Numbered from the stretch's first letter, positions 1 to 9,547 are shown. The stretch is 25,150 nt of DNA from Deltaproteobacteria bacterium (GCA_015492355.1 WGFF01000222.1:1-25150), one strand, 5' to 3'. The notes: generated from the sequence alone by a model not told the origin. Numbers and translations: made by a program.

Positions 1-1
1 C

Positions 2-91
2 GATATATGTCGTTCGTGCAACATAGAAAGAGAGATGACCAGGGAGGAGATAATAAGCGTAATCAGGTTTATAAGGACCGTTGCTGATTAG
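2..91 (+). CDS. 3' end of an upstream gene (partial), possibly a c-type cytochrome
   Basis: Frame 2 is open from the window edge to TAG at 89-91 and reads DICRSCNIEREMTREEIISVIRFIRTVAD*. The T-x-EEI-x-x-VI-x-FIR ending resembles the C-terminal helix of class I cytochromes c, but only 29 residues are visible. Confidence 0.4.
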   Translation, partial: DICRSCNIEREMTREEIISVIRFIRTVAD

Positions 92-296
92 GGGAAGTCT
101 GGGTATAGGCTTGTGCTGTAACCTCAAAGCTTCACCCTATGAGAACACGTGATAGGGAAGACCCCTGTTCATGGAGGGTTGTGGTGTAGATCGCTCGGTG
201 TGGTGATATCAAAAAAGCCTTTCCACCCTGGAATGATGAAATAAAAACCAGTGTGAGCGTATCCTATAAGATAAAAACAACTTCGCCGGAGTGAAG

Positions 297-2498
297 ATGA
301 TGGTAGATGACAGAAAAACCCCTTGCCGGTACAGACCTTCAATGTACATTGTGTTGGCCTTCGTACTCCTTGCATGTGCTGTAGCCATTCCATCCACTGC
401 ACATGCCCTTGAGGTGAACGAGTACAGACAGTTCATGGACCTGGATTCGAGGAAGGTTGTCTGGTTTCTTGCCCAGATGCATCTTTTCTTCGGTGCATTC
501 GTGCTGGGTGTGCCCATCTTTGCTGTGATAATAGAGATAGTGGGATGGAAAAGCGGGGATAAAAAGTTCGACCGCCTCGCCTACGAATTTACAAGCCTTC
601 TCAGTGTTGCCTACGCCACTACCGCTGCCTTTGGAGGTCTTCTTGCCTTTGCCCTTTTCACACTCTATCCCACCTTCATGGGCTACATGGCAGGGTTGTT
701 TAAGAACGTGTTTTTCATCTATGCGATTATGTTCTTCGGGGAGACCTTCTGCCTTTACCTCTACTACTATGGATGGGAGTGGCTCAAGGGTGGTGGTACC
801 TTCAACAGGAGGATACAGTGGGTGCTGAAGGGGGCTGGCACAGTGGGGCTTGTCTTTACGGTGCTATTCTTCCTCGGTGGTATAGGACCGGAGATGAGAA
901 CAGATACGAGAGTTTTTATGACGGTCCTGTACTTCCTTCCCATAAGTGCTGGGCTTATACTCATAAAAGACAGGAAGAGTGTCCACATATTTATAGGCAT
1001 ACTCCTCAATGTGTTCGGTACAGCCATAATGCAGTTGGCTAACAGCTGGGCTGGATTCATGATGAGCCCTGCGGGTGTCAACGAAAGGGGCGATATGGTA
1101 GGTACATCCTGGCAGGTGTTCGAGAACATACTTGCCACCCCTATTGCCATACACCGTATGCTCGGCAATCTCGCCTTTGGCGGGTTCGTTGCAGGTGCAT
1201 ACGCAGCTATCAAGTTCATCGGTGCAACCACACCAGAGGAAAAGGCTCACTACGACTGGATGGGATACATAGCAAACTTCGTCGCCATCATAGGGCTCAT
1301 CCCCCTTCCCTTTGCAGGTTACTACCTTGGCAGAGAGGTGTACTCCACGAGCGCTGTCATGGGTAACAACATGATGGGAGGGGATTTCTCATGGACATTT
1401 ATCATACAGGCTATGCTCGTGGGCTCACTCTTTCTTATAAGCAACTACTATCTGTGGTGCGGGATGACAAGGATACCAGGTGCAGAGAGGTATTACGGGT
1501 ATATAAAGTACATCCTTGCAGCCATAGTGATATCCTTTGCCATCTGGCTCACACCACACAACCTCCCCCTCACAGGCAGGGAGGTATCCCAGATGGGAGG
1601 TAGCCAGTACCATCCAACACTAAAGTTCCTCGGGCTCATGCCGGCAAAGAATGCGGTCGTAAACCTCATCATCCTGTCCACGTTCTTCAGTTTTCTTCTC
1701 TACAGGAGGGGAAACAAATCCGAAAGGGTGCCCATAACCCAGCAGGGGAGTCTTCCCAGGATAGTCATTTCCATTGCCGGGCTTGTTGCAGTAGGTATAG
1801 TCGGGCAGTATGCCATATATCTTCTCGGTCTCGATCCCAAGGTGCTCGACCTCCCTGTGGATCGTGCCCATTACTTCAGGACAGTGGGCTACCTTCTCCT
1901 TGCAGAGTGTGTCATGGCAGTGATTGCGGTGGGGCTAACACTCAGGGACAGGGGCATACTTGCCCAAGCCCTATACCTCGGATTTACCGCATTCAGCGTG
2001 GTTGTATTTCTCGGTGTCTATGGATTTGTGGTGATGGAGAAGGCATCACCATTTCTCAGGAATATAGCCGTAAGCCAGTTCCTTCAGCTCATAAGCTGTA
2101 TAGTCCTTGTGACGACGATAGATATATTTCTTTTCAGGGGTGCCAGGGAGATAGGCTCCCTTAGGTGGGGAAGGATGACCGTACGAAGCCAGTACGCACT
2201 CTTACTCCTTACCATCGTCATAACAATGAACATGGGGCTTATGGGATTCATAAGATCAGGGCTCAGGAGCGACTGGCATATATTCGGCATCATGCGGGAT
2301 ACATCCATGTGGTCGTACACACCGAGCAACTACACCATGACGCAGATGGTGAGCCTCTGTGTGCTTCTCTTCCTCACAGGTGTTGCATTCATGTTCTGGC
2401 TCAGCGGTATATTCTCGCATAAAAAGGAGAAGGAAAAAGAGATGGAGAAGGCTGAATACATGGAAGAACTATACCTGAAGGAGAGGGAAAGGACATGA
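297..2498 (+). CDS. Cytochrome bd-like terminal oxidase subunit I (CydA homolog of the Nitrospira/Nitrospina type)
   Basis: Very hydrophobic ~733 aa protein with CydA-like segments: MHLFFGAFVLGVP (His19 equivalent, codon 480-482), FFGETF (Glu107 equivalent), ANSWAGFMMSPAG, IHRMLG (His186 equivalent, 1152-1154) and C-terminal LRSDWHIFGIMRDT (aligns with GRQPWxVxGxxxT). No QPxKLAAxE Q-loop motif. GGAG at 288-291 favours ATG 297 (ORF track starts at GTG 291). Confidence 0.85.
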   Translation: MMVDDRKTPCRYRPSMYIVLAFVLLACAVAIPSTAHALEVNEYRQFMDLDSRKVVWFLAQMHLFFGAFVLGVPIFAVIIEIVGWKSGDKKFDRLAYEFTSLLSVAYATTAAFGGLLAFALFTLYPTFMGYMAGLFKNVFFIYAIMFFGETFCLYLYYYGWEWLKGGGTFNRRIQWVLKGAGTVGLVFTVLFFLGGIGPEMRTDTRVFMTVLYFLPISAGLILIKDRKSVHIFIGILLNVFGTAIMQLANSWAGFMMSPAGVNERGDMVGTSWQVFENILATPIAIHRMLGNLAFGGFVAGAYAAIKFIGATTPEEKAHYDWMGYIANFVAIIGLIPLPFAGYYLGREVYSTSAVMGNNMMGGDFSWTFIIQAMLVGSLFLISNYYLWCGMTRIPGAERYYGYIKYILAAIVISFAIWLTPHNLPLTGREVSQMGGSQYHPTLKFLGLMPAKNAVVNLIILSTFFSFLLYRRGNKSERVPITQQGSLPRIVISIAGLVAVGIVGQYAIYLLGLDPKVLDLPVDRAHYFRTVGYLLLAECVMAVIAVGLTLRDRGILAQALYLGFTAFSVVVFLGVYGFVVMEKASPFLRNIAVSQFLQLISCIVLVTTIDIFLFRGAREIGSLRWGRMTVRSQYALLLLTIVITMNMGLMGFIRSGLRSDWHIFGIMRDTSMWSYTPSNYTMTQMVSLCVLLFLTGVAFMFWLSGIFSHKKEKEKEMEKAEYMEELYLKERERT

Positions 2499-3502
2499 CA
2501 GAGGTTGTCGGAAAGGTTTTTGTCTTTCTCCTTGTTGTTCTTGTAACATTCCTGTGGGTTGGACATGCCATAACCAGGCTCACAGGTGGTGAGAAGAAGG
2601 CTACAGGTAGTGTGGAGATAAGTCCAGAGGGTGGAGAGGCTATATTCTGGGGAAAGGGGAGGTGTTTTACCTGTCACAGTCTTGGTGAGAGGGGCAGTGC
2701 TGTTAGGTGTCCAAACCTCGGTGTATGGGGGGAGAAGTTCCCCTTACCCATAGGACTCAGGGCAGTGGAGCGGGCAAAGGAAAGGAGCGAGGAGACAGGT
2801 ATGGAGTATACAGCAACAGACTATCTCGTAGAATCCCTTGCCAATCCGAGTGCCTATATTGTGGAGGGTTACAAGGATGAGATGGCTGTTGTGTACGCAC
2901 CACCCATATCCCTTACCCTGGATGAGATAAAGGCTGTTGTGTCCTATCTTCAGAGTCAGGGTGGGGATGTGGATATAGAGGCACTGAACAACCCCACCGA
3001 GGTCTCCAAAAAGTTCTATGACAGGATAAAGGCAGCTTCTGCAGCAGGTGGAGGAGACCCCGGCAACGGAGAGATGGTGTTCTTTGAGAGTGCTGGATGT
3101 AACGAGTGTCATGCAATAAGAGGTGAGGGTGGAAGGATAGGTCCAGACCTGAGCGCCATCGCAAAGAAAGGGATAAAGTACATCTCAGAGTCCATACTCC
3201 AGCCTGCCGCATCCTTTACACCAGGGTATGAGACCTACACGGTCATTAAGAAGGACGGCAAGGAGATGTACGATGAGGAGGGAAGGAAGGTCTCGGGTGT
3301 AAAGGTAAAGGAGACAGATGAGTACGTGGAGATAGCACTCGATCCAGAGTCCATAGTAAGGATACAGAAGAGCGAGATAAAGGAACTCGTAATAGATAAG
3401 AACAAGAGCATAATGCCAGAAGAGCTCATAGAGGCACTTACTGTAAAGGAGTACCAGGACCTTCTTGCCTTCTTGCTCCTTCAGAAAGGTGAGAAGGACT
3501 GA
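2495..3502 (+). CDS. Membrane-anchored diheme cytochrome c
   Basis: N-terminal TM helix; CFTCH and CNECH motifs. The second domain (GPDLS...SILQP...GYE...SIMPE) resembles the heme-binding domain associated with membrane-bound dehydrogenases. ATGA overlap with the cydA-like stop codon. Confidence 0.9.
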   Translation: MTEVVGKVFVFLLVVLVTFLWVGHAITRLTGGEKKATGSVEISPEGGEAIFWGKGRCFTCHSLGERGSAVRCPNLGVWGEKFPLPIGLRAVERAKERSEETGMEYTATDYLVESLANPSAYIVEGYKDEMAVVYAPPISLTLDEIKAVVSYLQSQGGDVDIEALNNPTEVSKKFYDRIKAASAAGGGDPGNGEMVFFESAGCNECHAIRGEGGRIGPDLSAIAKKGIKYISESILQPAASFTPGYETYTVIKKDGKEMYDEEGRKVSGVKVKETDEYVEIALDPESIVRIQKSEIKELVIDKNKSIMPEELIEALTVKEYQDLLAFLLLQKGEKD

Positions 3503-3727
3503 TGCCCCAGCCTCAAAGACCGTGTGGTTTCACATCCTGAGGGGATCCCATCCCTTAAACACAAAAGACTTTTAAGGTGTGGACTAAGGGATGGACCTTG
3601 AGGATATAATCGGGAGCCTCTTAAAAGGGTTGACCTGGGCTCACCACTTGAGGGTTCAAAGGGGTGTGGCTTATCGGGGTTTCATCCATCCTGTCTTTCA
3701 TCCTCGGACAGGATGGGTGAGTAAGTA

Positions 3728-4735
3728 ATGGATAAAACACCACAGGAGGTAGAGGTGGGTAGATTCAGGATAGGATTTTTTTGGACCTCTCTTGTATCCT
3801 TCATCATCATCTATGGGCTCATAAAGTGGTCGATACCGTTCATATCAAGGAAGATAACAGGGATGCCCTTTCCACTGCCTGTGCCAGGTACATTGATGTT
3901 CATGTACATGGTACTGGCTGTGGTTGCCATGTTTCTCTACATCACCTTTTCTGAGGATGGGCTTGAGGATTTTCTCTATCCTGTAAGGAGGTTCCTTAAG
4001 GGCGAGTACGGTACTGTTCCGAGGGGTGTTGTGCTTGCTATAGTTCCCCTTGTTGTGGGATGGCAGATATACGATATAAGTATACCCAAGATAAGCGCCC
4101 CTGTCTCTTTGAGGATTCAGCACCCATCGAGTAACTTCCCCAAGAAGATGGAGGCACTTAAAAACCCGGTAGAGAACCCAACGGATGAGGAGATAGAGGA
4201 GTTCATAGAGCAGGCAAAAAGTGGCGAGGTGGGGTTCATCCCCCAGGTCATGGCTGATATAGAGAGGTGGAGGGAGGAGAACCCTGATGTACATATACTC
4301 TCCTTCATTCCCACAGAACCTGTAAAGAGGTTTCTGGAAGAACTTAGAACAGGCAGGGTGGACAGGGAGACCGCAAGGTCTGCCCTCAGGGAGAAGAATC
4401 TCTTTGAGGGCAGAGCCCTCTATGCCATGAACTGTAGACCCTGTCATGGTGACAGTGTGGGTGGGGATGGACCGATGGCAGACGGATTCAAACTCAGACC
4501 GATAAACTTCACTGATAACGGCACCATCGAGACCATAGTGGAGGGTTATACCTTCTGGAGGGTATCCAATGGGGGACCTGGTCTACCCATTGAGGCGACC
4601 CCATGGGATTCAGCCATGCCCATGTGGAGGCTCAATCTCACAGAGGAGGAGATGTGGAAGATAATCATGGCTGAGTACGACCTTGCGCAGAAGACCCCCA
4701 GGATACCTGAAAAACACGAGGCAGAAAAAGAATAA
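3728..4735 (+). CDS. Membrane-bound monoheme cytochrome c
   Basis: About three N-terminal hydrophobic helices, one CRPCH motif, and a distal SAMPMW segment supplying a likely Met axial ligand. Confidence 0.88.
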   Translation: MDKTPQEVEVGRFRIGFFWTSLVSFIIIYGLIKWSIPFISRKITGMPFPLPVPGTLMFMYMVLAVVAMFLYITFSEDGLEDFLYPVRRFLKGEYGTVPRGVVLAIVPLVVGWQIYDISIPKISAPVSLRIQHPSSNFPKKMEALKNPVENPTDEEIEEFIEQAKSGEVGFIPQVMADIERWREENPDVHILSFIPTEPVKRFLEELRTGRVDRETARSALREKNLFEGRALYAMNCRPCHGDSVGGDGPMADGFKLRPINFTDNGTIETIVEGYTFWRVSNGGPGLPIEATPWDSAMPMWRLNLTEEEMWKIIMAEYDLAQKTPRIPEKHEAEKE

Positions 4736-4757
4736 AGGACGAGGTGGATTCTGGAGT

Positions 4758-6383
4758 ATGAGGTATACGTCTACAACCACAAGGACGGTCATAACGGTAC
4801 TTTTCCTGTGCACTGTGGCGTACAACACATGGGCTGGTGACAAGCCTACAAAACCAAGGCCACCTGTAACAGAGGAGGCTATTGAGAAAGGGAGGGTGAT
4901 ATACTTCAAGAGGTGTAGTTTCTGTCACGGGCTCCTCGGTGACGGTAATGGTCCTGCTGCGGATTTTATGGACCCCAGGCCAAGGGATTTTACACTCGGT
5001 ATATTCAAGTTTCGCACCACCCAGAGCGGTGAGTTGCCAACGGATGAGGACCTTTTCAGGACCATAAGCAGGGGACTGCCTGGAACACCCATGCAGGGAT
5101 TCGACAACGAACTTATAAAGAACGGTCTCACAGAGGAAGAGAGGTGGCAGGTTATATACTATATCAAGACCCTTGCCCCGGAATTTTCCAATCCTGAATT
5201 CGACCCATCTGACAAGGTCGTGAGTCTGCCAGCTACAAGACCACCCTACAACGAGGAGACGATTGCCAAGGGTAGAGAGGTATTCAAGAAGGCAAAGTGC
5301 TGGGAGTGTCATGGTGAACTCGGAAGAGGGGATGGGCAGAAGGCATTCGACAGAACGGATGACTGGGGTTTCCCCATACGTATAAGGAACCTCACCCATT
5401 CATGGAAGATAAAGGGTGGAACAGATGTGGAGGACATATACATGCGTTTTTCCACAGGGATAAACGGCACCCCCATGCCATCCTTTGTGGATTCCCTTAC
5501 AGAAGAGGAGAGATGGTACCTCGCCAATTTCATAAAATCCCTTCAACATAGACCAACAGAACACACCGTCCTGAAGGTGAAATTCATCGAGGGGGAGATA
5601 CCCCTCGATCCAGAGAGCCCTGAATGGCAGGAGGCAGAACCAATGGATGTCCGTATGGCAGGACAGGTGATATTTGCGCCAAGGTGGCAGAATCCAAGTA
5701 TAGAACTCGTAACACTCAGGGCACTCTATAACGAAAAGGAGATAGGCTTCCTTGTGGAATGGGACGACCCGTTCAAGGACGTGGTACACATAGAGGACAG
5801 GGAGTTCGATGCCAGGGAGATAAGCAGAGTCGGTGCGTACAACTCCTATGTCAACCCCTTTGAGATGGTACCACGGGAGCTTGAGACCTTCAGGGACTCT
5901 GTTGCACTCCAGTTCCCTGTAAAGATACCAGAGGGCACAAAGAAGCCACACTTTTTGAGGGGAGACCCGAGTAATCCCGTAAATCTCTGGATATGGAAGT
6001 CCGACCTCCACAACCAGGGGAAGCCCGCTGTAGAGGAGGTGAATGCCAGGGGACCACAGCAACCTCTCAAGGTGCAGGACCCAGATAGCCAGCAGGTACA
6101 GTCAAAGGCTATCTGGAAGAAGGGACGGTGGAGTGTGGTAATGAAGAGACCCCTTATAACAGAGGACAGAAAGGATATACAGTTTGTGAGTGGAAGGTTC
6201 ATACCGATAGCTGTAAATGCGTGGGATGGGTCCAACGGTGAACACGATCTTATAATGAGCCTTTCATCATGGCACTATGTGTTCCTGGAGTCTGCCACAC
6301 CTGTTAAGGTGTATGTCTATGCCCTTCTGGGCGTGATACTGACCGGGCTCGGTGAGTTCTGGCTTGTAAGGAGGTATAGATAG
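4758..6383 (+). CDS. Diheme cytochrome c fused to an ethylbenzene-dehydrogenase-gamma/NxrC-type heme-b domain, C-terminal TM anchor
   Basis: Signal-peptide-like N-terminus; CSFCH and CWECH each followed by GT(P)M(P/Q); C-terminal domain with LYNEKEIGFLVEWDD, FRDSVALQFP, WIWKSD and NAWDGSNGE typical of EB_dh domains; terminal TM helix. GAGGTGG at 4741-4747 favours ATG 4758 over the track start 4683. Confidence 0.85.
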   Translation: MRYTSTTTRTVITVLFLCTVAYNTWAGDKPTKPRPPVTEEAIEKGRVIYFKRCSFCHGLLGDGNGPAADFMDPRPRDFTLGIFKFRTTQSGELPTDEDLFRTISRGLPGTPMQGFDNELIKNGLTEEERWQVIYYIKTLAPEFSNPEFDPSDKVVSLPATRPPYNEETIAKGREVFKKAKCWECHGELGRGDGQKAFDRTDDWGFPIRIRNLTHSWKIKGGTDVEDIYMRFSTGINGTPMPSFVDSLTEEERWYLANFIKSLQHRPTEHTVLKVKFIEGEIPLDPESPEWQEAEPMDVRMAGQVIFAPRWQNPSIELVTLRALYNEKEIGFLVEWDDPFKDVVHIEDREFDAREISRVGAYNSYVNPFEMVPRELETFRDSVALQFPVKIPEGTKKPHFLRGDPSNPVNLWIWKSDLHNQGKPAVEEVNARGPQQPLKVQDPDSQQVQSKAIWKKGRWSVVMKRPLITEDRKDIQFVSGRFIPIAVNAWDGSNGEHDLIMSLSSWHYVFLESATPVKVYVYALLGVILTGLGEFWLVRRYR

Positions 6384-6485: not shown

Positions 6486-7691
6486 ATGTACAAGAGGATA
6501 CTCGTTTGTTTGGACAATTCCAGATATTCCCGTTATGGAATGGATATAGCCATAAGGCTCGGTAGTTTTTTTAATGCGGAGGTGACCGGTCTGCACGTAT
6601 ATGCAGCACGACTGCATGAGTCGAGATTCATGGACCTTGAGACAGGTCTTCCAGAACGTTATCGATCAGAGGCTATTCTGAAAAGACAGCGTGACATACA
6701 CATGGACCTCATAGAAAAGGGACTGGGTCTCATATCGTGTTCCTACCTCGATGGGTTTAGAGTTATGGCTGAGAAAGAGGGTGTGGTCTGCAGGTGCAGG
6801 AGCAGGGAGGGGAGAAACTATGTGGAGATTATAAGGGAGATTGAGGAAGGTGATTATGACCTACTGGTTATGGGTGGGATGGGCCTTGGAGAGGTTGAGT
6901 ACAGCATTATCGGTGGTGTATGCGAACGTGTGGTAAGGCAGGTAAGAAAGGATGTACTCATTGTAAAGGAAGGCTTTACAGGTGGGAGGATAATGGTGGG
7001 AATAGATGGGAGTAGATACTCATACGGTGCCCTTATGTGTGCCATCGGGCTTAAGAAGGTATCTGGATGTGATGTTGAGGCTATAAGTGTGTACGATCCC
7101 TATTTCCATAAGATCGCATTCAGGAATATAGCAGAGGTATTGACAGACGATGCATCATCTGTATTCAGGTTCAAGGAACAGGAACAACTCCATGATGAGG
7201 TTATAGACAGAGGGCTTGCAAGCCTGTATCAGTCCTATCTCGATATAGCCCATAGTATCGCAGAAAGGCAAGGCGTGGAGATCAAAACGACCCTATTGGC
7301 TGGGAAGGCATTCAATGAAATGCTCAAGGCCGCCCAGAATACCTCCACTCCCTTCATCATAACTGTAGGGCGTTTTGGTCTCCACAAAACACCACTCTCA
7401 TCCATAGGCAATACAAGTGAAAATATCCTGAGGATGGCAACCACAAACGTCCTCATAACTAATCGTGAGTTCAACGAGGTGGTGGATAAAACAGATATGG
7501 CATTCGAGGATATGGAGTGGAGCGAAGGTGCTGTAAAACGGATAGAAAGGGTGCCTGATTTTGTAAGAGCCATGGTCAGAAAAACCATCATGGAGCTCGC
7601 CATGGAAAAGGGATGTAGAGAGATAACAGAGGATCTGGTGGATGAAGCCAGAAGGTATTTTACAAAACACAGGACGGTGAACAACAGATGA
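6486..7691 (+). CDS. Tandem universal stress protein (two USP domains) with C-terminal PCP_red-like helical domain
   Basis: YKRILVCLDNS...DLLVMGGMG...GGVCERVVR and IMVGIDGS...TVGRFG...GNTSENILR are two USP repeats. The tail MEWSEGAVKRIERVPDFVRAMVRKTIMELAMEKGCREITEDLVDEAR matches the BchB C-terminal (PCP_red) pattern. Confidence 0.88.
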   Translation: MYKRILVCLDNSRYSRYGMDIAIRLGSFFNAEVTGLHVYAARLHESRFMDLETGLPERYRSEAILKRQRDIHMDLIEKGLGLISCSYLDGFRVMAEKEGVVCRCRSREGRNYVEIIREIEEGDYDLLVMGGMGLGEVEYSIIGGVCERVVRQVRKDVLIVKEGFTGGRIMVGIDGSRYSYGALMCAIGLKKVSGCDVEAISVYDPYFHKIAFRNIAEVLTDDASSVFRFKEQEQLHDEVIDRGLASLYQSYLDIAHSIAERQGVEIKTTLLAGKAFNEMLKAAQNTSTPFIITVGRFGLHKTPLSSIGNTSENILRMATTNVLITNREFNEVVDKTDMAFEDMEWSEGAVKRIERVPDFVRAMVRKTIMELAMEKGCREITEDLVDEARRYFTKHRTVNNR

Positions 7692-7978
7692 AGTATTTTA
7701 GGATACTACTTGAATGTGGTCATGTTGGTGCGGGTAATCGTTATGATGTGGTCAGGTATTTTGCAGCAAAAGACCTGATAACCATAATCGACAGACTCAA
7801 GAGCCTACCGAGACTCAAAAACAGGGAGAGGTTTACATCTATAAAATCCATAGAGGTTATAGACAGAAAGACCTTCATGAATGGTAAGAGCATGGAGAGG
7901 CAGGACCCCTATTTGAGGAGCAGAAAGAAGATACTGAAGAGGCTTATAAAAGATACTGATGCTCATAGATGTAACTAA
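7688..7978 (+). CDS. Small basic hypothetical protein with CGHVGAGN motif (paralog of 15711-15989)
   Basis: ATGA overlap with the upstream stop. Shares FxxxLECGHVGAGN and downstream residues with the ORF at 15711, with synonymous codon differences, which indicates real coding. Confidence 0.75.
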   Translation: MKYFRILLECGHVGAGNRYDVVRYFAAKDLITIIDRLKSLPRLKNRERFTSIKSIEVIDRKTFMNGKSMERQDPYLRSRKKILKRLIKDTDAHRCN

Positions 7979-9356
7979 GGGAGGGTTTTTCCTTCTGCTC
8001 CTTTTAGGTCTCCATATATGGGGTTTGCCCGGTACTCTCCTGGCAGATGACAGGATGGATAACCTTGAGGCAAGGGTTACAAGGCTTGAGGCGATAGTGG
8101 ATAGTCTTTCGATCGAGGGTAGAATAAGGATAAGGGGCAATTCGTATAACAATCTCGATCTCAACAAGGGAGACAGAAAGGACAACCGTAATGACTTTGT
8201 AGACCTGCGGAGTTATATCATACTCAGGGCAGGGAGGGATAACTGGTCGGGTGTTGCTGGACTGGACCTTGCCGGTGATGACTTCAATGATGGTGTTGTG
8301 CTCGGGAATGACGATCCTGGCAAGAATAGACAGATAGATGTAGGGGTAAGGTACCTCTATCTCGACTACAGGAACCATTTCATCCTTCGTATAGGTAGAC
8401 AGCCTGCCAGAGTCGGTCATGGTATAGCATCCAATATCATACGGGATATGTTCAAGGTGGGATGGGATTTTGGGCGCTTTGATATCGTATTGGTGTGGGT
8501 CAAGGGTGCAGAAGGGGATAGTCAGGCTGGAGATGTCCCCACAACAAGAAGGATACTGGGTGGTGGCACAGGGGATGACCAGGACCTGGATGCCTTTGGC
8601 GTGGTGATGAATACCTCCCTTTCTGAAGGAGGGAATCTACAATTCTATCTTATCCGTAAGTTCGATACCACAGAGGAGAAGAAACACACCGAGCATATGC
8701 TTGCAGGGCTTTCTGGCTCTGGTGTGGTCTTAAGGAATCTCCTCCTTAAATTTGAATTCAACTACCTCGGTGGTCGAACACCAAAGGGGATGGAGGGCAG
8801 TCCACCTGACAGGAGGGCTGATATAGAGGCTCTTATGCTCTATCTCGATGGCACCTACAGTTACAACCACCTCAGCGGTGGAATCGCATTTGGGTACGGC
8901 AGTGGGGATAACAACCCATCGGATGGTGTACTCAGGAATTTTCAGAACTTCTTTATAGATGAGACAGGCTTCCATTATACGTACCTTTTCAGTGATGATA
9001 TCCATGGATACGATGGAAGATCGGCTGACACAGGCAGGGGCTCTGGTTTCGCCAATATTACATGGTTGGGGTTTCGTCTCGGATATAGCATCCGTGGTCT
9101 TAAGATAGGTGGCTCCTACACCTATTTGATGGCTACAAGGTGCCAGAAGGAGGGTTCTGGTCCACTCGGGGATGGCTCTCCTCTGTCATCGTCCATGACA
9201 AGGGATGTGGGATATGAGATGGACGGAGACATTTACTACACTGTGAACGATACGGTGAATATCGGTCTCAGGGGCGGGGTCTTCTTCCCGGGGAGGATCT
9301 ATAGATACAGGGATGTGGCATCAAAGATGGAGCTTACGGTTGAGTATAGATTCTAA
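7959..9356 (+). CDS. Outer-membrane beta-barrel porin (alginate-export-like)
   Basis: Signal peptide ending GTLLA, short coiled coil (LEARVTRLEAIVDSL), alternating amphipathic beta strands, RIGRQ and C-terminal ELTVEYRF ending in Phe (BAM-type signal). Confidence 0.8.
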   Translation: MLIDVTKGGFFLLLLLGLHIWGLPGTLLADDRMDNLEARVTRLEAIVDSLSIEGRIRIRGNSYNNLDLNKGDRKDNRNDFVDLRSYIILRAGRDNWSGVAGLDLAGDDFNDGVVLGNDDPGKNRQIDVGVRYLYLDYRNHFILRIGRQPARVGHGIASNIIRDMFKVGWDFGRFDIVLVWVKGAEGDSQAGDVPTTRRILGGGTGDDQDLDAFGVVMNTSLSEGGNLQFYLIRKFDTTEEKKHTEHMLAGLSGSGVVLRNLLLKFEFNYLGGRTPKGMEGSPPDRRADIEALMLYLDGTYSYNHLSGGIAFGYGSGDNNPSDGVLRNFQNFFIDETGFHYTYLFSDDIHGYDGRSADTGRGSGFANITWLGFRLGYSIRGLKIGGSYTYLMATRCQKEGSGPLGDGSPLSSSMTRDVGYEMDGDIYYTVNDTVNIGLRGGVFFPGRIYRYRDVASKMELTVEYRF

Positions 9357-9547
9357 AGGTGAAACGAAAACCGAAGGCTGAGCCTTTTCATAGGGTTTGA
9401 TTGCAGAAAAAGAGTCTGTGGGGAGGTGAGCCACTGTGTGGCTAACAGTGGTCTTCCCTTTTGAGGGTTCATCCCGGGAGTTCAAATCCCTCTCTTGCGA
9501 AGGATGGTGTAACAAAAGACGAAACTATGAAAACCAAAAGGAGGTAG

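Follow-up and report, generated by a model that had tools for sequence, protein, structure and literature searches.

The DNA analysed here, 25,150 nucleotides (nt) from a Deltaproteobacteria bacterium (GCA_015492355.1, WGFF01000222.1:1-25150; hereafter the window), is the whole of contig C222 in a 2.07-Mb metagenome-assembled genome (MAG) of 373 contigs that is 85% complete. Four co-directional genes at positions 297-6383 encode a CydA homologue followed by three membrane-anchored c-cytochromes. By sequence, this module is a member of the already catalogued OR-N2 family of the cytochrome bd superfamily and not a new kind of oxidase. The four-gene complex most likely acts as a cytochrome c-fed reductase of O2 (or of reactive oxygen species), a reading that we favour tentatively. 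New here are a long form of the CydA-like subunit with two insertions, a module that is self-contained without NXR, the occurrence of the long and the classic form in one genome, and the finding that outside the nitrifiers the module usually has an iodate-reductase-like cluster as its genomic partner. The four genes of the module, hereafter also called the cassette, are as follows.

297-2498, + strand: gene 1, bd-like CydA homologue, OR-N2 long form (PF01654, AlphaFold2 (AF2) model, hhalign)
2495-3502, + strand: gene 2, dihaem cytochrome c with an N-terminal transmembrane (TM) anchor at residues 4-22 (Pfam Cytochrom_C, TIGR02603)
3728-4735, + strand: gene 3, membrane cytochrome c with three N-terminal TM helices, a linker and one class-I haem c domain
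4758-6383, + strand: gene 4, alt-NxrC-like subunit with a dihaem domain, an EB_dh domain and a TM helix at residues 543-561 (PF09459, TIGR03477)

The open reading frame (ORF) of gene 1 begins at 291 or 297 and ends at 2498 on the + strand, with an ATG at 297 and GGAG 6 nt upstream of it. Residue numbers are counted from the GTG at 291, which gives 735 amino acids (aa); the ATG start gives 733 aa. PF01654 (Cyt_bd_oxida_I) matches the protein at E 4.5e-10 over residues 54-166 and in a weak second stretch, and the Pfam alignment jumps over residues 167-229. Against solved structures, phmmer retrieved CydA chains only (5doq_A and 9r2g_A), and a 41-member family profile aligned to E. coli CydA by hhalign with a probability of 94.7. 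No match to PF00115 (COX1) was found on the gene 1 protein, and its fold is that of CydA, so it is not a haem-copper oxidase. At the N-terminus (residues 18-41) a hydrophobic core leads to A-H-A and then LEV, in agreement with the signal-peptide-like start described in the first-pass annotation.

That annotation had also proposed mapping the protein on an AlphaFold model. Done for gene 1 alone, on the family alignment, this gave a model with a mean predicted local distance difference test score (pLDDT) of 89.6, a predicted template-modelling score of 0.88 and a CydA fold. VIA-align superimposed the model on every solved CydA chain with Z values of 28-33 over about 350 residues, at a root-mean-square deviation (rmsd) of 3.1-3.9. 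The best match was 7ose_A (AppC), with Z 33.2, 351 residues and an rmsd of 3.5, and identity to CydA over the structurally aligned residues is 14-18%. Because the alignment to CydA spans model residues 48-712, the protein contains the CydA core with all nine of its helices, and insertions interrupt it. In the model a signal-like helix at 16-37 comes first, then a linker with pLDDT below 50 at 39-43 after A-H-A, and then about 17 TM helices, so that there are about eight membrane helices beyond the CydA core in addition to the signal-like helix. Sidedness was read as helix parity from the secondary-structure string of the model. On this basis H64, H288, H423, H441, M450, S656 and H663 are predicted to lie on the periplasmic side and H232 on the cytoplasmic side, as in CydA. 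Notable positions within gene 1 are listed below.

480-482, + strand: codon of H64, equivalent to H19 of E. coli CydA, a ligand of the O2-binding haem (phmmer, hhalign)
720-743, + strand: Y144 to E151, equivalent to E99 to E107 of the CydA proton channel (hhalign)
789-968, + strand: clade-specific two-TM insertion, residues about 167-226, between CydA TM3 and TM4 (alignment, model)
984-1154, + strand: H232, in the region equivalent to H126, to H288, equivalent to H186, a ligand of haem b558 (hhalign)
1638-1652, + strand: M450-P-A-K-N454, the M393-equivalent position (spacing against M430/N434 of the OR-N2 reference)
1758-1970, + strand: second clade-specific insertion of about 72 residues (about 490-560), about two TM helices (spacing)
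2256-2279, + strand: S656 to W662-H663, with Ser where CydA has the haem b595 ligand E445 (phmmer domain 2, at low confidence, and spacing)

Conservation of these residues was counted over 32 diverse members of the gene 1 family. The equivalents of His19, Glu107 and His186, which the first-pass annotation had read as kept, were recovered as H64, E151 and H288 by phmmer against 5doq_A and by hhalign against E. coli CydA, and are conserved in 29, 23 and 30 of the 32 members, respectively. E99 is replaced by Y144 (Tyr in 28/32); six residues separate it from E151, which makes the spacing of the two channel positions one residue shorter than in E. coli CydA. H232 falls within one helical turn of H126 and is kept in 31/32, its 56-residue distance to H288 being the same as in the OR-N2 reference, and N251 falls in the periplasmic ANSW motif shared with CydA. 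Downstream of H288, M450 (78% conserved; K453, 94%) lies at a spacing of 162, compared with 161 in both the OR-N2 reference and a paralogue encoded on contig C220 of the same MAG.

S656 (Ser in 24/32) is the residue that the first-pass annotation had read as Ser instead of the E-x-GRQPW Glu. Its correspondence to E445 comes from a low-confidence phmmer alignment to 5doq_A, and the residue spacings equal those of the OR-N2 reference (S563/W569); R659, W662 and H663 come after it in the weaker C-terminal alignment. The additional His residues of WLTPH (H423, 21/32) and DWH (W662-H663; H663 in 27/32) were also borne out, and H441 is His in 25/32. H663, nearly invariant beside the lost E445, may be a ligand of a third haem. 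As for the Q-loop, whose K/E motif had been noted as lacking, none could be aligned in the gene 1 family by hhalign against E. coli CydA, and the model places membrane helices at that position after the TM6 equivalent, among them 367-394 and 398-419.

The cytochrome bd superfamily has been divided into qOR, OR-C and OR-N (Murali, Gennis & Hemp 2021, bioRxiv 10.1101/2021.01.16.426971). For OR-N2, with TKS59798.1 of Nitrospira sp. as reference, Table S6 of that work lists H99, Y183, E190, Y197, Y199, H213, H269, M430/N434, S563 and W569, together with 14 TM helices, and the typical operon is described as carrying multiple cytochromes c and an ebdC homologue, with the remark that the electron donor might be a cytochrome c (10.1101/2021.01.16.426971). 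The gene 1 protein matches this row at every listed position. Like OR-N2, it keeps the equivalents of H19, E107, H126 and H186, has Tyr for E99, one residue fewer between the two channel positions, Ser for E445 with Trp six residues on, and Tyr at both +7 and +9 from E107, and it has neither a Q-loop nor a CydB; its operon likewise encodes several cytochromes c and an ebdC (EB_dh) homologue. It departs from the reference by two insertions of two helices each (+58 and +72 residues) and by its helix count, about 17 TM helices and the signal-like helix as opposed to 14.

The C220 paralogue, a 609-aa short form that is 45-46% identical, has the reference spacing to within one residue: its intervals E107-H126, H126-H186, H186-M393 and H186-Ser (equivalent positions) are 23, 56, 161 and 295, and those of the OR-N2 reference are 23, 56, 161 and 294. 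The first insertion of gene 1 (model helices 173-194 and 204-224) is missing from this paralogue and from many family representatives. The second appears in the M393-equivalent-to-Ser spacing, 206 in the gene 1 protein compared with 134 for the C220 protein and 133 for the reference, and the column of H527 is a gap in 24/32 members. Because gene 1 differs only by these two insertions, between TM3 and TM4 and between M450 and S656, we regard it as a long-form OR-N2. On its residue signature and spacings, the gene 1 protein is a member of the OR-N2 subfamily.

Membership in the other groups was considered and rejected. OR-C proteins carry CxxCH inside a CydA-like subunit of about 8 TM helices; since no CxxCH motif occurs within the 735-aa gene 1 protein, it is not OR-C. 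OR-N1, in which E107 is replaced by Gly within a petA/petB/petD operon, is ruled out because E151 is kept and the neighbours are cytochromes c and EB_dh instead of pet genes. The canonical quinol:O2 bd oxidases (qOR1-4) are ruled out by the lack of a CydB in the 85%-complete MAG and of a Q-loop, and by Y144 and S656 in the places of E99 and E445. It is hardly credible that the module is nevertheless a normal cytochrome bd that oxidises quinol and has its cydB at another place in the genome. Nothing speaks for this but the name of the Pfam family and the names assigned automatically in databases ('cytochrome ubiquinol oxidase subunit I'). No cydB follows gene 1, as the first-pass annotation had stated, and the genome search suggested there returned no PF02322 match in the whole MAG at its 85% completeness. 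Besides the missing Q-loop and the replaced E99 and E445, the branch to E. coli CydA is very long (4.6 substitutions per site in a FastTree phylogeny), and cytochrome c partners are conserved.

The three genes that follow encode membrane-anchored c-cytochromes (2495-3502, 3728-4735 and 4683/4758-6383), as recognised at first pass. The CxxCH motifs of gene 2, at residues 57 and 202, are invariant in 70 sequences together with M130 and M307, and the single CxxCH of gene 3, at residue 236, is invariant in 71. Gene 3 has in addition an invariant H132 (4121-4123) just past its third membrane helix and an M61 (3908-3910) in its second helix that is kept in at least 90% of the same 71 sequences; these may be ligands of an additional haem or contacts to the bd-like subunit. 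The AF2 model of the gene 3 protein is moderate (pLDDT 69.4), and a Foldseek search with it retrieved cytochrome c6-like domains and no match for the membrane domain. The ORF of gene 4 is open from a TTG at 4683, with a probable start at the ATG at 4758. From there, the protein runs through a signal peptide and a dihaem cytochrome c domain to an EB_dh haem-b domain that the earlier annotation had overlooked (PF09459, E 2e-22; TIGR03477), and ends in a C-terminal TM anchor. Together, genes 2-4 provide five c-haems and one EB_dh-type b-haem, all on membrane-tethered periplasmic cytochromes. Across about 70 homologues per cytochrome, the five CxxCH motifs and the candidate Met ligands vary little or not at all.

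The dihaem domain of gene 4 matches 6h5l_B (E 2e-59), which we take to be the partner chain of a Kuenenia nitrite/NO-active HAO-like enzyme, and its EB_dh domain matches NxrC (7b04_C, E 1e-10) and EbdC (2ivf_C). The positions of the canonical Met and Lys haem-b ligands of EbdC/NxrC align to R426 and M525. H423 (5949-5960 covers H423-R426) and M525 (6255-6257) are conserved together, in 64/73 and 60/73 sequences; this co-conservation suggests that the EB_dh haem has putative His/Met ligands and, as a consequence, a higher potential. The likeness to NxrC bears on the idea that the complex is a membrane anchor and electron outlet dedicated to NXR, as discussed for Nitrospira, Nitrospina and anammox bacteria, in which the cluster adjoins nxr (PMC6606698, PMC3578206). 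We consider this very unlikely here: no NxrA-type enzyme (type II DMSO-reductase alpha subunit) was found in the 85%-complete MAG, and a strong TIGR03479 match is absent from four of the five other cassette-bearing genomes, including a Nitrospinota MAG. Since the cassette is carried without NXR, the module does not depend on it.

Relatives of gene 1 are numerous. More than 4600 were scored in a word-indexed search, the best 120 at 72-79% identity; an exhaustive 50%-cluster search gave 938 representatives of the family, and at least 457 stretches of GTDB species genomes encode a relative. For comparison of gene order, 80 related loci were kept, of which 56 long loci were used for clustering of flanking ORFs. 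The 80 loci span Pseudomonadota, "Deltaproteobacteria", Nitrospinota and Nitrospirota, and many carriers come from oxygen-minimum-zone samples, judging by record titles. Wherever the contig is long enough, the order of genes 1-2-3-4 is kept, with one rearranged exception (L047), and the four proteins are 55-80% identical across phyla. Because the four genes are collinear in essentially all related loci and their haem motifs and Met ligands are conserved, we regard them as encoding one complex. In the FastTree phylogeny (54 rows, with many deep forks unsupported) the gene 1 protein shares a clade, with full support, with a large group of Pseudomonadota and three "Deltaproteobacteria" MAGs from groundwater; the sister of this clade is formed by Nitrospinota/Nitrospirota cassettes, and the C220 paralogue belongs to a different clade.

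The surroundings of the cassette are conserved as well. The layout among the 56 long loci begins with two dihaem cytochrome c peroxidase/MauG-family genes (38 loci), followed by an 890-aa molybdoenzyme of the AioA family (40/56; TIGR02693 at 389 bits, just above the cut-off), a HEAT-repeat protein (40/56), a small beta-sandwich protein (41/56) and then the first cassette. After it come a 223-aa dihaem cytochrome c (45/56) and a second, short-form cassette (44/56). Tandem twin cassettes are seen at 44 of the 56 loci.

In the mechanism that we propose, electrons would enter from the periplasmic cytochrome c pool through the five c-haems and the EB_dh b-haem, a pool that here could draw on the several bc-type complexes or on the adjacent AioA/IdrA-like molybdoenzyme. 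They would then pass to a b558-like haem near the periplasmic face, held by H288 with M450 as its probable partner, and on to a high-spin haem on H64, at which O2 would be reduced with cytoplasmic protons delivered via E151 and H232. The H64 haem may also reduce H2O2 or some other reactive compound that the adjacent oxyanion enzyme yields as a by-product. The outcome would be charge separation without quinol. This oxidase reading is favoured because the surviving residues, the equivalents of H19, E107 and H126, are those of the O2 site and the proton channel; because some aerobic Nitrospira have OR-N enzymes only and no other oxidase (PMC12342949); and because the conserved island carries peroxidases, which fits the handling of oxidants.

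Several points weigh on the other side. Our literature search found no purification or activity assay of any OR-N enzyme. Of the canonical haem-site carboxylates two, E99 and E445, are lost; anammox bacteria, which are anaerobes, carry the same cluster (PMC3578206, PMC6606698); the six haem-copper-oxidase-family genes of the host leave no obvious need for another oxidase; and the putative His/Met ligation of the EB_dh haem (H423/M525) is read from the alignment.

According to the main rival explanation, in our view doubtful though worth weighing, the complex is a reversible cytochrome c:quinone oxidoreductase, a hub resembling alternative complex III and having no O2 chemistry. Such a hub would link the quinone pool to high-potential periplasmic molybdoenzymes, feeding the IdrAB-like reductase in the forward direction and running in reverse, driven by the proton motive force, in nitrite oxidisers and anammox bacteria. 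Reverse electron transport has been proposed for the same cluster (Lucker 2013, Mundinger 2019; PMC3578206, PMC6606698), and one role would cover three settings, namely NXR in aerobic nitrite oxidisers, NXR in anammox bacteria and the AioA/IdrA-like enzyme here and at 40 of the 56 long loci, in a host that has many other oxidases. The gene 1 model also aligns to ActF and ActC, the NrfD-like quinol-interacting subunits of alternative complex III, with Z values of 16-20 over about 320 residues; this similarity may be generic, possibly just a shared pair of four-helix bundles. The quinone hub is disfavoured by the lack of a recognisable quinone-binding motif and the deletion of the canonical Q-loop site, by the identity of the kept residues as O2 site and proton channel, and by the five cytochrome b (bc-type) genes already present in the genome.

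In this MAG the island is present but split by the assembly over contigs C138, C340 and the window. At the end of C138 lie genes for a porin, a beta-sandwich protein, two proteins of the CCP_MauG family and a Rieske protein of 181 aa, and the part of the molybdoenzyme gene for its first 300 residues, with Rieske_3 3Fe-4S and Molybdopterin domains. C340, when reversed, opens with the C-terminal 332 residues of the molybdoenzyme and goes on to a HEAT protein of 742 aa and a cytochrome c of 178 aa. Positions 5588-10241 of C138 together with C340 thereby hold an idrP-P-B-A-like set whose large subunit is divided between the two contigs; a sensor kinase, a sigma-54 regulator and the porin precede it. 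In the reversed orientation, the final 157 nt of C340 overlap window positions 1-156 at 96.8%, with one indel region near nt 95, and the window begins with the end of the same cytochrome c gene.

2-91, + strand: 3' end (last 29 codons and stop) of the 178-aa monohaem cytochrome c gene of C340 (overlap, translation)

Translated in frame 2, this segment is the C-terminus of the C340 cytochrome c (Pfam Cytochrome_CBB3/Cytochrom_C) with one substitution. The join of C340 to the window is shown by the end overlap and the shared cytochrome c gene, and the assembly break inside that gene is probably due to strain variation. C138 and C340 are probably adjacent, as they appear to hold the two halves of one molybdoenzyme gene.

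The gene content idrABP1P2 separates iodate reductase clusters from arsenite oxidase neighbourhoods (Reyes-Umana 2021, PMC8692401). Like idrABP1P2 (Yamazaki 2020; PMC8692401), the island combines an AioA-family large subunit carrying a 3Fe-4S Rieske_3 domain with a small Rieske protein and two dihaem peroxidases, and by this content the upstream molybdoenzyme is probably IdrA-like; the gene order in this MAG differs, being P, P, B, A. The published idrABP1P2 description does not mention a bd-like module (PMC8692401), and no paper linking IdrA or iodate with a bd-like protein was found in our literature search.

With its two dihaem peroxidases and an oxyanion-type molybdoenzyme for which release of H2O2/HIO has been proposed (PMC8692401), the island would also suit a cytochrome c-fed reductase of NO, H2O2 or a halogen/nitrogen oxyanion intermediate that serves mainly detoxification and not respiration. 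Canonical bd oxidases have been discussed in O2/NO detoxification (PMC10839748), and the homology of the gene 4 dihaem domain to 6h5l_B points the same way. We consider this reading improbable: four conserved dedicated subunits, often in tandem duplicate, speak rather for a core respiratory complex.

We regard it as possible, with some reservation, that the OR-N2 complex is a dedicated membrane partner of high-potential periplasmic oxyanion molybdoenzymes and not a free-standing oxidase; in nitrifiers and anammox bacteria it would serve NXR, and in this MAG and dozens of Pseudomonadota an AioA/IdrA-like enzyme. Such a partner could take one of two possible forms: it might couple cytochrome c and quinone reversibly at a site of a new type, or it might be an oxidase for the O2 or H2O2 that iodate-type chemistry sets free. 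For experiments, the Idr-like linkage offers the best lead. With a cultured carrier of the island, the choice between oxidase and quinone coupling would become testable.

The MAG holds further copies of the module. A second complete cassette, that of the short-form C220 paralogue, is split over C220 and C158, which are joined by a 200-nt overlap at 97.5%, and part of a third lies on C209. Long and short forms working together as a CydAA'-like pair are a possibility; the CydA-like paralogue carries its own cytochrome set, which weighs against a role as a CydA' partner. As to the host, its RpoB is at most 86% identical to those of uncultured Deltaproteobacteria/Thermodesulfobacteriota MAGs such as GWC2_55_46 and GWC2_42_11. 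Six COX1-family genes, three of them in tandem on the 8.4-kb contig C301, and five cytochrome b genes in 2 Mb make an unusually dense respiratory repertoire. The molybdoenzymes found in the MAG are NuoG, a NasA/Fdh-like protein, an Fdh/Nap-like fragment and the AioA/IdrA-like enzyme. Searches of the MAG for RuBisCO and SoxB gave no match; at 85% completeness this is weak evidence of their absence. A repeat of about 87 nt in the last 90 nt or so of contig C194 matches more than 100 other contigs at 88-100%, often at their ends, and is probably a REP/MITE-like element that fragments the assembly.

One gene downstream of the cassette has homologues beside it elsewhere.

6486-7691, + strand: protein with Usp and PCP_red domains (Pfam)

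Homologues stand beside the cassette only in L011, L021, L015 and L061 among the 80 loci, including the two closest 'Deltaproteobacteria' relatives, and the protein is probably not part of the complex. None of the other downstream genes recurs beside the cassette in the 80 loci; they encode a small protein, a porin, a SoxA/TsdA-like cytochrome, multihaem cytochromes, DsbD, a TlpA-like protein and an ECF sigma factor. The link to extracellular electron transfer that the first-pass annotation had implied was not supported as a conserved feature, no downstream porin or multihaem gene having homologues beside the cassette there, and these genes were rejected as conserved partners. Locally, the island of this MAG extends into an outer-membrane cytochrome conduit. 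By a consensus scan, the first non-coding terminator-like hairpin on the + strand past the cassette lies at 9430-9452, after a porin-like gene at 7959-9356; as there is no earlier hairpin, the cassette, the Usp gene, a small CGHVGAGN protein and the porin may form one transcription unit.

Compared with canonical CydABX (E. coli 6rko/6rx4, AppCB 7ose, Geobacillus 5doq), gene 1 shares the nine-helix fold, H19/H186, E107 and the ANSW motif; it differs in lacking CydB, the Q-loop quinol site, E99 and E445, and in having about eight extra helices and c-type cytochrome partners. The comparison with bd-like proteins of Nitrospira and Nitrospina made at first pass was borne out. Closer than CydABX is the 'bd-like_3 + alt_NxrC_2 + two c-type cytochromes' cluster of Nitrospira moscoviensis, which has the same four gene products: next to the bd-like protein there are two membrane cytochromes c, one dihaem and one monohaem, and a membrane-anchored alt-NxrC (about 62 kDa) that includes a haem-b domain (PMC6606698, PMC3578206). 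That cluster is conserved in Nitrospina (Nitrospina gracilis) and in anammox bacteria, as in Kuenenia kustd1705-1712 (PMC6606698, PMC3578206), and in Ca. Manganitrophus this gene set is termed TO_1 (PMC9040806). For NIDE0901, a copper site has been suggested in work cited in PMC6606698. OR-N/bd-like enzymes are the presumed main terminal oxidases of the key nitrifiers Nitrospira and Nitrospina. Unlike the clusters of Nitrospira, Nitrospina and anammox bacteria, the module described here stands not beside nxrAB but beside an AioA/IdrA-like enzyme.

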